DNA of 24,000 nucleotides from assembly GCA_964477825.1 (NCBI GenBank), contig CAYZEW010000003.1, forward strand, positions 28,715 to 52,714, in the 5' to 3' direction. Below are positions 2,662 through 7,600 of this stretch, in pieces (within the stretch, counting starts at the first letter, position 1; the number at the start of each line of letters is the position of its first letter). The notes beneath the pieces are model-generated. The model was not told the DNA's origin. It did no database searches and was given only the letters and a program-made list of their open reading frames with translations. A program made the translations under genes and the position numbers. This DNA is from an uncultured Candidatus Izemoplasmatales bacterium (lineage in GTDB: Bacteria; Bacillota_I; Bacilli_A; Izemoplasmatales; Izemoplasmataceae).

Positions 2662-3450
2662 CTAATCACCAGCATTCGGATAAAATAGTTGTTCATCATA
2701 CATAATATATGTTGCGATAAGGTCTTGAGTATCTTGGCTGATAATCCAATCATAAAATAAATCAGCATATTCCTCATTACGATTATGTAAATCGGGATTA
2801 ACTTTAATAACTCCATATTGATTTTTTAATTCTTCCCGATTTTCATAAGCAATTATTAAATCTAGATTATCTTTCATTGAAAGGTATGTTGCTCGATCAC
2901 TTAAAGTGTAATATCCACTAAGAGATGCCATCGTCAATGTCGCTCCCATCCCTTGGCCTGTTTCATGATACCAATTCCCAAAAGTTGTTACGTCATAATT
3001 ATATTGATTCCAAATTGACAACTCTTTTTGATGAGTTCCAGAATTATCTCCTCTTGAATAAAAATCAAGTTCTTGTGATGTCATAAATTCTAATGCGTCA
3101 GCTAATGTATCTCCTTCTAAATCAAATGGACCTACAATAATGAAATCATTATACATAATATTATGACGTTTTTCACCATACCCATTATTTACAAATTCTA
3201 TTTCACGATCATACGCATGTACTAGTAAAATGTCAGCTTCTCCCATTTCACCCATTTCTAGTGCTGCGCCCGTTCCTAAAGCAACTACTTTTACAAATAT
3301 CCCATATTCTTCTTCAAACACAGGAAGAATATAATCAAGTAATCCACTATTATCTAGTGATGTTGTTGTTACAATAAGTAGTTCTTTTTTTGAACAAGCA
3401 CTCAAAGTAAAAACTAATAATACTCCTAACAAAACAATAATTTTTTTCAT
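2662..3450 (-). CDS. tupA: Tungstate-binding lipoprotein TupA
   Basis: Signal peptide with lipobox (VFTLSAC). The mature protein starts ...LLIVTTTSLDNSGLLDYILP, carrying the TTTS motif that I recall as characteristic of TupA oxyanion binders. AAGGAAGG RBS. Sits downstream of a Moco-type riboswitch. Confidence 0.8.
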   Translation of the reverse strand: MKKIIVLLGVLLVFTLSACSKKELLIVTTTSLDNSGLLDYILPVFEEEYGIFVKVVALGTGAALEMGEMGEADILLVHAYDREIEFVNNGYGEKRHNIMYNDFIIVGPFDLEGDTLADALEFMTSQELDFYSRGDNSGTHQKELSIWNQYNYDVTTFGNWYHETGQGMGATLTMASLSGYYTLSDRATYLSMKDNLDLIIAYENREELKNQYGVIKVNPDLHNRNEEYADLFYDWIISQDTQDLIATYIMYDEQLFYPNAGD

Positions 3451-3472: not shown

Positions 3473-3512
3473 AAAAAAAAGATTTTTCACACCTAAAAAG
3501 GAGTAAAAAATC
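3473..3512 (-). terminator. Intrinsic terminator forming the expression platform of the upstream riboswitch
   Basis: Minus-strand RNA GAUUUUUUACUC-CUUUUUAG-GUGUGAAAAAUC forms a stem of about 10 bp followed by U8. It lies between the aptamer and the tupA RBS. Confidence 0.55.
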
Positions 3513-3514
3513 TA

Positions 3515-3615
3515 ACATCCTTTCCAAGCACGGGAGGTATAGGCATTTCTAACTATACCCAATGGTTTGCAATCATAATTACCGATAACCTTAGATTAAC
3601 AAACTCGGAATATTT
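3515..3615 (-). promoter_or_regulatory. Molybdenum/tungsten cofactor (Moco RNA motif) riboswitch aptamer
   Basis: The minus-strand RNA contains the remembered conserved blocks of the Moco motif in order: AUUCCGAG ... GCCUAUACCUCCCG ... UGGAAAGGAUG. Foldable stems are CCGAG/CUUGG (closing), GUUUG...CAAAC enclosing AAUC...GAUU, and a 7-bp GGUAUAG/CUAUACC hairpin. It sits in the 5' leader of tupABC-moeA, a typical genomic context. Not confirmed with a covariance model. Confidence 0.55.
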
Positions 3616-3629
3616 TTTTAACTGTCTTC

Positions 3630-3706: not shown

Positions 3707-3735
3707 TTGAAAACGCTACCACGTAGGAGTATAAT
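3707..3735 (+). promoter_or_regulatory. Sigma-A promoter of the aor operon
   Basis: TTGAAA (3707-3712), a 17-nt spacer, then TATAAT (3730-3735), about 36 nt upstream of the aor ATG. The leader is too short for a riboswitch. Confidence 0.6.
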
Positions 3736-3771
3736 AATAGTAAGAAAAATAATCTAAAGGGAGGCTTTAAA

Positions 3772-5559
3772 ATGTTTGGTTATATGGGCAAACTTCTAAG
3801 AATCAACTTAACAGACAATACTATTAAGGTTGAGGACTTAGATTTCGAACTAGCAAAGAAATACGTTGGTGGTCGGGGACTGGGAACTAAGATACTTTTT
3901 GATGAGATAGACCCGAAAATTGATGCTTTAAGTCCAGAAAATAAATTAATTTTTATTAATGGGCCATTAACAGGAACACCTACCCCTACAGGGGGAAGAT
4001 ACATGGTAGTTACAAAATCACCATTATCTGGTACAATCGCATCATCTAACTCTGGAGGTACTTGGGGAGCAAGACTTAAGTATGCTGGTTATGATGGCGT
4101 TATTGTAGAAGGAAAAGCAAAATCACCAGTTTATATTGCCATTAATAATAGTGATGTTGAAATTAAAGACGCCGCGCATATTTGGGGTAAAATGGTTGGT
4201 GAAGCTACTGATATCTTAATGGAAGATAAAAAAAGAACTAATGTTCTTGCTATCGGACCTGCGGGTGAAAAACTAAGTAAAGTAGCAGCAATTATGAATG
4301 ATAAAGACAGAGCAGCTGGACGTAGTGGTGTTGGTGCTGTTATGGGAAGTAAAAACTTAAAAGCAATTATCGTAACAGGAAACTTAAAAGTTAGTTTATT
4401 TGATAAAGACGCTGTTAAAGCACATGTTAAAGATGCTGACAAACTATTAAAAGATAACCCAGTTACAGGACAAGGATTACCTGCTTATGGTACTGCTGTA
4501 CTGGTTAACGTAATAAACGCAAATGGTATTTTACCAACTAATAATTTCCAAGAAGGTGTTTTCTTAAGTGCTGAAGATATCTCAGGGGAAACTCTTGCTG
4601 AAAAATATTTAGTAAGAAAAGATCCATGTCACCGTTGTACTATTGGTTGTGGTCGTTATACTAAAACTGATAAAGTTGAAGGTGGAGGACCAGAATACGA
4701 AACAATTTGGGCATTTGGAGCAGATTGTGGTGTTAAAAATTTAGAAAACATTATTGAAGCTAACTGGTGGTGTAACCAACTAGGTGTTGATACAATTTCT
4801 ACCGGTTCTACTTTAGCAGCTGCGATGGAATTAAAATCAAGAGGCTTATTAGATCATATTGATTTTGAAGGACATCCACTTGATTTTGGAAATGACGACG
4901 CAATTGTTTATTGGACTAAAAAATTAGCTAAAAGAGAAGGTTTTGGAGATGAAATGGCTGACGGATCTTACCGTTTATGTGAAAAATATGGTAGAGCTGA
5001 TTTATCTATGACTGTAAAGAAATTAGAAATTCCAGCATATGACCCACGTGGTGTTCAAGGACAAGGATTAAACTTTGCAACTTCTAACCGTGGTGGATGT
5101 CATGTACGTGGTTATATGATTTCTCCAGAAATCTTAGGATTACCAGCAAAACTTGAACGTAGAGCAATTGAAGATAAACCTTTCTGGACAAAAACATTCC
5201 AAGATCTTACTGCCTTTATTGATTCAATTGGATTATGCTTATTCACTTCATTTGCTTTAGGTGCTGATGAATATGCTGAAATTTATAACGCTGTCGTTGG
5301 TACTAACTGGACAGGTGATGACATCTTGAAAGCAGGAGAAAGAATTTACACATTAGAAAAACAATTTAATATTGCCGCAGGTATTTTACCTGAAGAAGAT
5401 ACATTACCAAGCAGATTACTTACTGTACCTTTACCAAGTGGTCCTTCAGAAGGTGAAGTGCATCACTTAGACAAATTGTTACCTAAATATTATGAACTTA
5501 GAGGTTGGGATTCTTTAGGTATTCCTACAAAAGAAAGACTTAAGGAATTAGATTTATAA
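3772..5559 (+). CDS. aor: Tungsten-containing aldehyde:ferredoxin oxidoreductase (AOR family)
   Basis: 595 aa with the AOR-type N-terminus MFGYMGKLLRINLTDNTIKVEDL. [4Fe-4S] motif DPCHRCTIGC (CX2CX3C at residues 286/289/293), with a fourth Cys in DSIGLCLF. Two pterin-binding D-x-x-G-(L/V)-(D/C) motifs (LGVDTIS, DSIGLC). RBS GGGAGG. Confidence 0.9.
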   Translation: MFGYMGKLLRINLTDNTIKVEDLDFELAKKYVGGRGLGTKILFDEIDPKIDALSPENKLIFINGPLTGTPTPTGGRYMVVTKSPLSGTIASSNSGGTWGARLKYAGYDGVIVEGKAKSPVYIAINNSDVEIKDAAHIWGKMVGEATDILMEDKKRTNVLAIGPAGEKLSKVAAIMNDKDRAAGRSGVGAVMGSKNLKAIIVTGNLKVSLFDKDAVKAHVKDADKLLKDNPVTGQGLPAYGTAVLVNVINANGILPTNNFQEGVFLSAEDISGETLAEKYLVRKDPCHRCTIGCGRYTKTDKVEGGGPEYETIWAFGADCGVKNLENIIEANWWCNQLGVDTISTGSTLAAAMELKSRGLLDHIDFEGHPLDFGNDDAIVYWTKKLAKREGFGDEMADGSYRLCEKYGRADLSMTVKKLEIPAYDPRGVQGQGLNFATSNRGGCHVRGYMISPEILGLPAKLERRAIEDKPFWTKTFQDLTAFIDSIGLCLFTSFALGADEYAEIYNAVVGTNWTGDDILKAGERIYTLEKQFNIAAGILPEEDTLPSRLLTVPLPSGPSEGEVHHLDKLLPKYYELRGWDSLGIPTKERLKELDL

Positions 5560-5567
5560 AAAAAGTT

Positions 5568-5595
5568 AAGGAATGAATAATTTTATTCATTCCTT
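5568..5595 (+). other. Perfect 13-nt inverted repeat (hairpin) between aor and the maturase gene
   Basis: AAGGAATGAATAA (5568-5580) pairs with TTATTCATTCCTT (5583-5595). An A-run lies upstream and only a weak U-tract downstream on the plus strand. Confidence 0.7.
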
Positions 5596-5604
5596 CTTAA
5601 TATT

Positions 5605-6630
5605 ATGAAAAAAGTATATATAGAGTTAACTAATAGATGCAATTTAAACTGTGCAATGTGCTACAGACATTCTTGGGAAAATACTTTAGGTGATATGAGT
5701 ATCGAAATAATAGATAAAATTAGTGACCATTTAAAAGGGACAAAAGGCATTGTTTTTGGAGGAATTGGTGAACCAACAATAGCTAAACAATTTGAATATG
5801 CTGTTGAAAAGTTCAAACAATACGACTTAGAAATTACTACTAACGGAATTATCCGTAAATCTGCAATAGAAATATTATGTAAAAACTTTAAAAAAGTCAT
5901 TATTAGTGTCGATGGTACTGAAGATGATTATTTTTCAGTACGTAAAACAGAGTTTTCTCACATAAAAGAAACGATCGAATTAATCAACGCTTGTAAAAAA
6001 CGTCATAACTCAAGATTACCTTCAATCGAGTTTGCTTTTGTATTAACAAGATCAAACAAAAACACCATTTATAAAGTAATTGATTTCGCAAACAAATATG
6101 ATGTTGATAAACTGCTAGTATCTCATTTACTCCCCCAAAACAAAGAACAAACAAAAGATATCTTTTATACAAAAGATTATAATTATGAAGGCCATGAATA
6201 TATGAAATTAGTTAGTAAATATGCGATTTATGGTCATAAAGTCAATCTAGCTTTTCCTTATATGGAGATCAAAACAGAAAGATACTGTCAATTCGTAGAA
6301 AACGATTATACTTATGTTGATTATTCAGGAGACGTTATTCCTTGTTATCGTTTTGCTAACACCTATACTGAGTGGGTATTTGACCGTGAAAAGACTGTTT
6401 TAAAACATTCTTTTGGAAATATCTTAAAAGCTAATATTGATGAAATATATTATGGTAAAGAATATACCGAATTTAGACAAAGCGTTTTAAATACTAAACA
6501 TCCAAGTTGTGTAGATTGTGAATATGAAGATAGTTGTAGTTTTATTGAAACAACTGAATTTGATTGTTTAAGTTATTCTCCAAGTTGTGCAGATTGCTTA
6601 TGGAATAGAAATATTATAAAATGTACTTAG
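5605..6630 (+). CDS. Radical SAM/SPASM-domain protein (AOR-associated tungsten-cofactor oxidoreductase maturase family)
   Basis: N-terminal CNLNCAMCY (CX3CX2C). The C-terminal region holds a SPASM-type CX13GX4C (CQFVENDYTYVDYSGDVIPC), then CVDCEYEDSC and CADC...C, with at least 9 Cys in the last ~115 aa. It lies directly downstream of aor and upstream of the MoaD/ThiF pair. Confidence 0.8.
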   Translation: MKKVYIELTNRCNLNCAMCYRHSWENTLGDMSIEIIDKISDHLKGTKGIVFGGIGEPTIAKQFEYAVEKFKQYDLEITTNGIIRKSAIEILCKNFKKVIISVDGTEDDYFSVRKTEFSHIKETIELINACKKRHNSRLPSIEFAFVLTRSNKNTIYKVIDFANKYDVDKLLVSHLLPQNKEQTKDIFYTKDYNYEGHEYMKLVSKYAIYGHKVNLAFPYMEIKTERYCQFVENDYTYVDYSGDVIPCYRFANTYTEWVFDREKTVLKHSFGNILKANIDEIYYGKEYTEFRQSVLNTKHPSCVDCEYEDSCSFIETTEFDCLSYSPSCADCLWNRNIIKCT

Positions 6631-6640
6631 GTGATAAATT

Positions 6641-6874
6641 ATGATTACAGTAAAATTATATTCTGCGATAAGAAAATATGGTGGAAAAGAAGTGATGTTT
6701 GAATACTACGATGGGATGACAATAAGAGATATTATTACTGAATTGAAAATCCCTTTAAAAGAGATATCTATTATTATTTTAGATCATTTTGATAGTACTA
6801 CTGACATTATGATTGATAGGAAAGTTAAAGAGTCTTCTTTAATTCACCTTTTTCCCCCAATGGCTGGTGGTTAA
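6641..6874 (+). CDS. MoaD/ThiS-family ubiquitin-fold sulfur carrier
   Basis: 77 aa ending ...FPPMAGG-stop (C-terminal Gly-Gly). RBS AGGTGA. It lies immediately upstream of an E1-like adenylyltransferase. Confidence 0.75.
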   Translation: MITVKLYSAIRKYGGKEVMFEYYDGMTIRDIITELKIPLKEISIIILDHFDSTTDIMIDRKVKESSLIHLFPPMAGG

Positions 6875-6875
6875 A

Positions 6876-7550
6876 ATGGAACAAGATAGTAGAAATATGG
6901 GGATTTTAAACTTAGAAGAACTCCAAATAATTAAAAATACTAATGTCCTAGTTGTAGGGGCAGGCGGATTGGGTGGTTATATTTGTAGTAGTTTAATTCG
7001 CCTTGGTATAAAGAATATTACTATCATTGATGATGATAATTTTGAACTTTCTAATCTGAATCGGCAAATTTTTTCAACTACAAAAACAGTAAATAAATCG
7101 AAAGTCAAAGTAACAAAGGAAAAATTATTAGAAATTAATCCTAATGCTATCATCAAAATCCTTCAAATGAAATATGATAAAACTATTAATAAAGCTTTAT
7201 ATCCTTCTATTGATATTGTTTTTGATGCTGTTGATAATATTGAAACAAAACTTTTATTAGAACACCATTGTTCTATCTATAACAAACCATTAATTCATGG
7301 TGCTATTGGTGGATGGTATGGTCAAATAGGAATTATCTTACCAAACTCATATATCTTAAAAGAAATTTATAAAGATAAAGTTTATGGGATTGAAAAGACA
7401 TTAAAAAGTCCTACCTTTATCCCTGGAATTGTTGGTAATATGATGATTAGTGAATTTTTGAAATTTCAATTGCATAAAGACGCTTTAACTAATAAAATTT
7501 TCTTTATCGATGTTCTCGATCATGAGTATCGAATAATCCACCAAAAATAA
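6876..7550 (+). CDS. ThiF/MoeB/HesA-family E1-like adenylyltransferase
   Basis: Rossmann nucleotide motif VLVVGAGGLGGYICSSL and ELSNLNRQ. The track start (GTG 6867) overlaps the MoaD-like gene. ATG at 6876-6878 sits 1 nt after that gene's TAA. At about 224 aa it has no rhodanese domain. Confidence 0.8.
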   Translation: MEQDSRNMGILNLEELQIIKNTNVLVVGAGGLGGYICSSLIRLGIKNITIIDDDNFELSNLNRQIFSTTKTVNKSKVKVTKEKLLEINPNAIIKILQMKYDKTINKALYPSIDIVFDAVDNIETKLLLEHHCSIYNKPLIHGAIGGWYGQIGIILPNSYILKEIYKDKVYGIEKTLKSPTFIPGIVGNMMISEFLKFQLHKDALTNKIFFIDVLDHEYRIIHQK

Positions 7551-7564
7551 TTTATTTATATCTT

Positions 7565-7600
7565 AAAAAGGAAGTTCAATCTAACTTGAACTTCCTTTAA
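7565..7600. terminator. Bidirectional intrinsic terminator
   Basis: 13-bp stem AAAGGAAGTTCAA (7567-7579) / TTGAACTTCCTTT (7586-7598) with A/T runs on both sides. It lies between two convergent genes. Confidence 0.75.

Follow-up and report, generated by a model that had tools for sequence, protein, structure and literature searches.

Clusters in which a gene for a MoaD-family sulfur carrier lies beside aor, the gene for tungsten-dependent aldehyde:ferredoxin oxidoreductase (AOR), have been described several times. Iyer, Burroughs and Aravind reported in 2006 that MoaD is 'strictly adjacent' to aor, often together with MoeB and a MoaA-like gene, in a cluster that was sporadic in distant bacteria and archaea and probably mobile; a MoaD-AOR fusion was found in Azoarcus, and the cluster was proposed to make molybdopterin specifically for the tungsten cofactor of AOR (PMC1779556). 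In Thermococcus kodakarensis, the set tk1066-tk1065-tk1064 holds the MoaD-type ubiquitin-like protein (Ubl) UblC (tk1065) between aor and a gene of the radical S-adenosylmethionine (SAM) type, and deletion of ublC lowered AOR activity to ~54% (PMC11323500). The Pyrococcus furiosus gene neighbouring aor dates from Kletzin et al. 1995, as cited in PMC11323500. In Aromatoleum, recombinant AOR had a specific activity of 4.5 U/mg, which the MoaD-like aorDE raised to 16 U/mg; when tungstate was added as well, it reached 85 U/mg (PMC9295118). The locus analysed here lies in a stretch of 24,000 nucleotides (the window; contig C3, 28715-52714) of a 1.31-Mb metagenome-assembled genome from an uncultured Izemoplasmatales bacterium, which is 84% complete in 103 contigs with ~30% G+C. 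All positions are given within the window unless stated otherwise. Four + strand open reading frames (ORFs), encoding AOR, a radical SAM/SPASM protein (rSAM), a carrier ending in Gly-Gly (GG) and a ThiF-type E1 enzyme, occupy 3772-7550.

Judged by homology and gene order, this cassette is a genuine copy of the already described four-gene AOR-linked unit of tungsten-cofactor maturation, here in an uncultured wall-less marine bacterium. The gene association is not new, as it was published in 2006 (PMC1779556), its rSAM link is held in NCBIfam as TIGR04317, and Thermococcus carries an aor-ublC-rSAM set. From the distribution of the genes it appears probable that the carrier and the E1 form an AOR-specific thiocarboxylate branch, which most likely feeds the pterin dithiolenes and does so without MoaE, and likewise that the rSAM is a non-essential maturase.

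The cassette shares with the clusters of Iyer and colleagues a MoaD gene beside aor and an accompanying E1. Those clusters occasionally include MoaE, whereas MoaE was undetectable in the genome of the cassette and in its class (300 of 301 class genomes), and neither Izemoplasmatales nor Mycoplasmatota is among the lineages listed for them (PMC1779556). Likened by gene neighbourhood, the Thermococcales set also brings together AOR, a GG carrier of the MoaD family and a radical SAM protein, and its carrier was shown genetically to contribute to tungsten-enzyme activity (PMC11323500); it differs in having the carrier gene in the middle, between those for AOR and the radical SAM protein, in the separate location of its E1 gene (tk2117) and in the presence of additional Ubls. 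The aorABCDE operon of Aromatoleum aromaticum likewise contains MoaD-like genes, but it encodes a three-subunit AOR and two MoaD-like proteins, and neither an rSAM nor an E1 gene is reported in it (PMC6365974, PMC9295118). With the Escherichia coli molybdopterin (MPT) synthase MoaD2MoaE2 and its partner MoeB, the cassette has in common an FPPxxGG-tailed MoaD carrier and a ThiF-fold adenylating E1. It departs from that system by having no MoaE, an E1 without zinc-binding CxxC pairs, and genes tied to one client enzyme instead of moaABC.

When the ORFs were re-derived, all four genes were found on the + strand where a sequence-only reading of the same DNA had placed them. The first is aor (3772..5559, 595 aa), followed after 45 nt by the gene for the Cmo-type radical SAM/SPASM protein (5605..6630, 341 aa), after a further 10 nt by the MoaD-family carrier gene (6641..6874, 77 aa), and, with an overlap of 8 nt, by the gene for a minimal ThiF/MoeB-type E1 adenylyltransferase, which ends at 7550 and starts either at a GTG (6867, 227 aa) or at an ATG (6876, 224 aa). 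The features that had been attributed to the products, namely the CX2CX3C motif of AOR at C286/C289/C293, the SPASM-type CX13GX4C and many C-terminal cysteines of the rSAM, the 77-aa Gly-Gly carrier and the ~224-aa E1-like adenylyltransferase with its ThiF domain, were all recovered.

A scan of species-representative genomes returned 339 loci with relatives of the rSAM, from which the best 80 were examined and 78 were scored. The complete order aor, rSAM, GG carrier, E1 was present in 34 of the 78 scored loci, and AOR lay directly upstream of the rSAM in 50. The co-occurrence suspected from a single locus is thus recurrent, with scored loci in eight phyla (Mycoplasmatota, Bacillota, Thermodesulfobacteriota, Spirochaetota, Bacteroidota, Thermotogota, Atribacterota, and Caldisericota), and the gene arrangement is beyond chance.

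The rSAM is the least constant member. Two high-quality genomes from two lineages, G081 and G050 (94 and 98% complete, respectively), carry aor-moaD-thiF without a Cmo-type rSAM and immediately next to tup-moe-moa-MOSC genes; in neither genome does TIGR04317 match anything better than MoaA. Because of these cassettes, the rSAM is by comparative sequence evidence not an obligatory step; it is accessory, helpful but not universally required. At the rSAM-less loci (L148:7486-10118 and L149:11226-15008), aor, a moaD of 73 aa and thiF run head-to-tail with tupAB-moeA-moa-MOSC-moaB, and in one of the two moaA stands immediately upstream of aor. An adjacent GG carrier of their own was also found for four of six further AOR-family paralogues. 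Four distant AOR paralogues of 650-700 aa with 27-36% identity (L168, L174, L175, and L167) each adjoin their own ThiS/MoaD-like GG ORF of 65-78 aa.

Whether the carrier/E1 pair follows AOR or the general cofactor pathway was compared among the 27 high-quality MoaC-bearing genomes in a 301-genome sample of the class. The cassette-type E1 occurred in all 11 genomes with a strong AOR-family gene, at least eight of which also have a GG ORF beside that gene. Among the 16 AOR-less genomes it occurred in two, and the other 14 had a TcdA-type E1 only or none. This contrast recurs within four families (f1, f5, f6, and f13) and is therefore more than the effect of one clade. Five of the AOR-less genomes were checked further; no ThiS/MoaD match, no MoaE and no cassette-type E1 was found in them, and their ThiF matches were TcdA-type only in four and absent in G041. 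Four of these five genomes encode a molybdenum or tungsten enzyme of the bis(pyranopterin guanine dinucleotide) (bis-PGD) type. Since the pair tracks AOR and AOR-less genomes keep bis-PGD enzymes, the latter enzymes would there obtain molybdopterin without MoaD, MoeB or MoaE. The phyletic pattern favours an AOR-specific role for the carrier and E1, not one tied to MoaA/MoaC. The earlier suggestion that the carrier serves AOR rather than general sulfuration of cyclic pyranopterin monophosphate (cPMP) is accordingly supported in its AOR-specificity, on other grounds than the one first given for it.

That first ground was the lack of MoaE in the cassette, from which it had been argued that the carrier does not feed cPMP. 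No match to MoaE (PF02391) was found in the host genome at its 84% completeness, and none in 41 relatives, though 11 of these have MoaC. In the class-level sample, MoaE occurred in one of 301 genomes, though 28 have MoaC (27 of the 28 being of high quality). Hidden Markov models (HMMs) of canonical MoaE and of the divergent MoaE-like proteins of Clostridia gave nothing better than E 0.1 against all six-frame ORFs of the host genome, so a hidden divergent MoaE, as far as both HMMs reach, was dismissed. As MoaE goes undetected throughout the genome and in 300 of 301 class genomes, its absence from the cassette says nothing specific, and the argument is uninformative. Of the three genes that the sequence-only reading wished to see looked for elsewhere in the genome, moaA and moaC are in the divergent operon beside the cassette, and moaE was not found. 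Clostridia contain a divergent MoaE-like family of ~135-140 aa (L104-L115, e.g., G332:C1:2150055-2150351) with the motifs GMFLVHNGVVRQTPKAKV ... GGDIRPHV, which scores 25-37 bits on PF02391, coexists with the MOSC protein and is easily missed in surveys that report MoaE as absent.

A MOSC protein is the candidate, on the evidence of gene content, for a non-homologous replacement of MPT synthase. Of 11 related loci examined (L147-L157), 10 have its orthologue within the moa operon, and the orthologue was found in 43 of 50 rSAM-bearing genomes, while among four genomes with canonical MoaE three lack it and one has a weak match only. This complementarity of MOSC and MoaE is suggestive; it coincides with a phylum boundary and was not counted as a test. 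Replacement of MPT synthase by a MOSC protein has been proposed for Dehalobacter (PMC4751268), and a missing MPT synthase step was noted for Geobacter (PMC2700814).

The carrier ends in FPPMAGG. It scores weakly on generic models, with 26 bits on TIGR01687 against a cut-off of 49.5 and 17.5 bits on PF02597 against 22.5, and a profile built from its orthologues matches the MoaD structures 1vjk (E 1.7e-10), 3rpf, and 1fm0. The GG ORFs of related loci form one well-conserved family with the consensus ...VAILLVNGRD...ISIFPPVGGG. It is the sole ThiS/MoaD-like ORF detected in the host genome; the other PF02597 match, a 13.9-bit stretch inside a 785-aa frame, was rejected as a second carrier. The E1 has a ThiF domain (PF00899, 167 bits) with GAGGLG at residues 31-36, and its GTG start at 6867 overlaps the carrier stop. 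E. coli MoeB and ThiF bind a structural zinc with two CxxC pairs. The cassette E1 has only two cysteines, C40 and C135, and therefore no such pairs, and at 224-227 aa it has no rhodanese or other extra domain. The genome has no second MoeB-type E1; its remaining ThiF-family gene is TcdA-like and was rejected as another copy.

AOR matched AFOR_N and AFOR_C with 276 and 492 bits, respectively, PDB 9g7j with 782 bits and P. furiosus 1AOR with 723 bits over residues 1-594. The cysteine ligands of the [4Fe-4S] cluster are C286, C289 and C293 together with a fourth, C489. Two pterin-binding motifs of the form DxxG(L/V)(D/C) had been claimed; both pterin loops are present (NQLGVD, 335-340, and DSIGLC, 484-489), but the strict motif occurs once, as D484-SIGL-C489, the other loop being N335-QLGV-D340. 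The protein, from the single AOR-family gene of the host genome, is predicted to be a tungsten-bis-pyranopterin/[4Fe-4S] aldehyde:ferredoxin oxidoreductase, with tungsten suggested by the adjoining tupABC genes and a riboswitch without P3 stem.

The best NCBIfam match of the rSAM is TIGR04317, aligned end to end (model positions 3-348 of 349) with 336.6 bits. The sequence-only reading had linked it to the 'tungsten cofactor oxidoreductase radical SAM maturase' family, and proteins of that name are ~40% identical to it. The lineage is borne out by homology and context, by the same cysteine pattern and by the same adjacency to AOR, but the score stays below the curated 380-bit equivalog cut-off, which was passed by none of the 301 class genomes. 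Close relatives are labelled by NCBI as 'radical SAM protein' or 'SPASM domain-containing protein' only. A literature search found no paper demonstrating the function of the rSAM, in agreement with the sequence-only reading. Both the Radical_SAM and the SPASM domain (PF13186, 42 bits) were detected, and 12 cysteines are conserved. The SAM-cluster motif CX3CX2C is formed by C12, C16 and C19; across 18 homologues, one row of which lacks the N-terminus, C19 is invariant and C12 and C16 are kept in at least 90%. Nine more cysteines are invariant in the same alignment, namely the pair of the CX13GX4C motif (C228...C247) and C302/305/311/321/328/331/340. The N-terminal half is MoaA-like.

The predicted structure of the rSAM has a mean predicted local distance difference test score of 79.5, with residues 1-297 good and the Cys-rich last 44 residues unreliable. 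Its nearest folds are SuiB, SkfB, anSME, and CteB, with template modelling (TM) scores of ~0.6, and the small-molecule enzymes BtrN, DesII, BlsE, and MoaA appear lower in the list. Reading the substrate from the structure was rejected, as the Cys-rich tail is poorly modelled and the fold matches mix protein-modifying with small-molecule enzymes. Like the rSAM, anSME (PDB 4k36-4k39) is a SPASM enzyme of similar size without an RRE domain that matures a client metalloenzyme, but the two share only ~20% identity.

In the tree, the AOR-linked rSAM clade of the Izemoplasmatales is sister to a clade of Eubacteriaceae with a support of 99/96. The rSAM proteins of this sister clade (Acetobacterium/Eubacteriaceae, L036-L056, e.g., L040:9490-11011) are 41-44% identical and retain all cysteines; their genes directly follow an arsR-family gene, next to arsD, arsA and a pyridine-nucleotide disulfide oxidoreductase gene, and are not beside AOR. 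A second clostridial rSAM clade is also located away from AOR. To judge by these gene neighbourhoods, the 'tungsten maturase' family may in part serve arsenic-related chemistry, and the two clades call for caution against naming the whole family tungsten-specific.

The role proposed for the cassette builds on gene identities, motifs, conserved order and phyletic pattern at a locus known from sequence alone, and from these we infer every chemical step. The minimal E1 would adenylate the Gly-Gly end of the carrier, and a sulfide or persulfide donor would then turn the acyl-adenylate into a thiocarboxylate; the E1 has no rhodanese domain or catalytic Cys motif of its own. The thiocarboxylate sulfur would be spent on the cofactor destined for AOR, with the pterin dithiolenes as the likeliest target. 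MoaE would have no part in the route, in keeping with a whole lineage without it. The rSAM, with one SAM cluster and conserved cysteines enough for two auxiliary clusters, would be an accessory maturase that acts on AOR or on the AOR cofactor. The divergent, riboswitch-controlled operon tupABC-moeA-moeA/PBP-moaA-moaC-MOSC-moaB would take up tungstate, make the precursor and insert the metal.

Several observations weigh against an AOR-specific branch. The host has no MoaD-like carrier or MoeB-type E1 besides those of the cassette, yet the genome also encodes a molybdopterin-needing formate dehydrogenase (FDH), so the pair could serve both enzymes. Both AOR-less genomes with a cassette-type E1 are exceptions to the phyletic pattern: G264 has the order Fe-S protein, ThiF, GG ORF, DUF1858, and in G181 the E1 and a GG ORF lie on a 3-kb contig fragment. 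Small, fast-evolving carriers escape detection, the cassette's own scoring just 17.5 bits on PF02597, which makes the finding of no MoaD in AOR-less genomes soft evidence. Related genomes, moreover, are not independent samples. In T. kodakarensis, deletion of the AOR-linked ublC abolished FOR activity as well, in pyruvate medium, and the Ubls are redundant and dispensable on elemental sulfur (PMC11323500). Given the loss of FOR, the word 'dedicated' that the sequence-only reading used for the pathway is too strong.

The pair in G264 (L150:8059-10649 on contig C7 of that genome) comprises ThiF and a GG protein of 81 aa; it is flanked on one side by a 433-aa protein that carries two motifs of the 4Fe-4S ferredoxin type and on the other by a DUF1858 protein. 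By its gene content it is an uncharacterised ubiquitin-like sulfur-carrier unit.

A wider scheme, which is put forward tentatively, would have two routes of sulfur insertion in bacteria of this MoaE-less type. One, independent of MoaD, MoeB and MoaE and with the MOSC protein as candidate, would serve bis-PGD enzymes such as FDH; the other, by carrier thiocarboxylate, would serve AOR-family enzymes only, each paralogue with its own MoaD-like partner and the rSAM optional. If this is true, the AOR cofactor would be built or finished by client-specific chemistry and not drawn from a common molybdopterin pool.

The alternative that survives best, though it seems rather unlikely to us, is that carrier and E1 are simply the general MoaD and MoeB of the cell, placed in the aor operon and serving FDH and AOR alike, with the large subunit of MPT synthase replaced by a non-homologous protein such as MOSC. 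Such a housekeeping role would account for their being the sole genes of their kind in the genome, for the presence of FDH and a MobA-FdhD fusion on the same contig, and for the adjoining tup-moe-moa operon, and it agrees with the effect of UblC loss on FOR in T. kodakarensis (PMC11323500) and with the MOSC orthologue in 10 of 11 moa operons, a MOSC-for-MPT-synthase exchange being a published idea (PMC4751268). It sits poorly with the 14 of 16 AOR-less MoaC-bearing genomes that lack a cassette-type E1, with the five checked AOR-less genomes in which no carrier was detectable although four keep a bis-PGD enzyme, and with the extra AOR paralogues that come with carriers of their own.

More doubtful is the variant raised by the sequence-only reading, in which the thiocarboxylate would provide a terminal sulfido or thio ligand of tungsten, or another AOR-specific sulfur, instead of the dithiolene; this would resemble the action of FdhD or Moco (molybdenum cofactor) sulfurase. 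Archaeal enzymes of the AOR family have been reported to be activated by sulfide, and relatives that apparently make MPT without the carrier/E1 pair, together with the tracking of AOR by that pair, are compatible with such a ligand. The carrier, however, is a typical MoaD with its FPPxxGG tail, and the known sulfido insertases are of unrelated types (FdhD, NifS-MOSC fusions).

There is little to commend the view that the GG protein is mainly a ubiquitin-like modifier or chaperone bound or conjugated to apo-AOR, and that the rSAM, which is anSME-like, modifies a residue in either AOR or the carrier. The rSAM fold is nearest to peptide- and protein-modifying SPASM enzymes, AOR paralogues and carriers are paired 1:1, a MoaD-AOR fusion is on record (PMC1779556), and the Ubls of T. 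kodakarensis form protein conjugates (PMC11323500), but the annotated neighbours include no recognisable E2-like or JAB-type gene, small-molecule SPASM/twitch enzymes are fold matches too, and confidence is low for the C-terminal 44 residues of the model. Least credible of all is a radical MPT synthase in which the rSAM replaces MoaE and moves the carrier's thiocarboxylate sulfur into cPMP: although MoaE was not found in the host or its relatives, the N-terminal half of the rSAM is MoaA-like and its gene is translationally close to that of the carrier (10-nt gap), it was rejected as a general explanation, since the MoaE-less G081 and G050 carry aor-moaD-thiF without a Cmo-type rSAM, 20 of the 27 MoaC-bearing class genomes lack the rSAM and 26 lack MoaE, genomes of Thermodesulfobacterium, Treponema and Caldisericales hold canonical MoaE and the rSAM together, and sister clades of the rSAM lie near ars genes and away from AOR.

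Upstream of aor, a sigma-70-like promoter candidate (TTGAAA-17-TATAAT, 3707..3735, + strand) matches 11 of 12 consensus positions, and a GGAGG at 3760-3764 precedes the aor ATG by 7 nt. Promoter-like sites in the region are near chance (32 observed against 27 expected), and the evidence for 3707-3735 is that of consensus only. The spacer between aor and the rSAM gene contains a hairpin of 12-13 bp (5568..5595, + strand; -13.6 kcal/mol, z -3.75), and no obvious Shine-Dalgarno sequence precedes the start of the rSAM gene. A strong hairpin occurs in the same spacer in most related loci folded (L023-L101), across phyla and with differing sequences, often followed by a U-tract, which would fit high AOR and lower accessory-gene expression. 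The hairpin is probably an attenuator or a stabiliser of the mRNA 3' end that would keep AOR well above the accessory proteins in amount. As it separates aor from the rSAM gene, co-transcription of the four genes from a single promoter is no more than plausible.

A 13-bp bidirectional terminator hairpin (7567..7598) lies between thiF on the + strand and a converging 110-aa ORF on the - strand. Its folding energy is -16.5 kcal/mol (z -5.4) for the + strand and -18.8 kcal/mol for the - strand; read on the + strand, it has a broken U-tail (UUUAAUAUU). The 'strong terminator' that was said to close the unit is therefore stable as a hairpin, but its U-tail is interrupted and it is shared with the opposing gene, for which, by its sequence, it would serve equally as terminator.

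On the - strand, the cassette is flanked by tupA (2662-3450), tupB (1978-2661), tupC (1395-1994), and moeA (178-1407). This divergent operon continues past the window edge with a moeA-PBP fusion, moaA, moaC, a MOSC protein of approximately 144 aa, and moaB (locus L003); the MOSC gene is placed between moaC and moaB, also on the - strand (L003:13123-13557, on contig C3 of the host, G000, just upstream of the window). The operon is headed by a molybdenum/tungsten cofactor (Moco/Wco) riboswitch aptamer (3501..3621, - strand; RF01055, 68.6 bits, E 7e-15), in which the P3 positions of the model are deleted. Moco/Wco riboswitches without P3 are the variant tied to tungsten-cofactor genes. The aor gene itself has no riboswitch, merely the promoter-like site upstream. 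Further upstream on the contig, a formate dehydrogenase of the NAD type is encoded with NuoF-like, FdhA, MobA-FdhD fusion and NuoE-like proteins, FdhA scoring 852 bits on TIGR01591. Molybdopterin synthase apart, the tungsten/pterin island on this contig is thus complete.

To our knowledge, no catalysts other than the tungsten enzymes of the AOR family reduce unactivated carboxylic acids. These enzymes are in demand for biocatalysis and for gas fermentation, but they are difficult to produce in active recombinant form, as the maturation of the cofactor is not understood. The locus alone, a known cassette in an uncultured organism, does not open this problem. Its class, on the other hand, includes natural 'knock-outs': some genomes with AOR have the rSAM and others lack it, and genomes with the cofactor pathway differ in the same way in the carrier and E1. 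These indicate that carrier and E1 belong with AOR and that the rSAM is accessory. From this comparison it follows that sets for co-expression of AOR should include the cognate carrier and E1, and that hosts lacking MoaE are the proper setting in which to test them. The whole class makes its pterin cofactors without MoaE, 300 of the 301 sampled genomes having no MoaE match.

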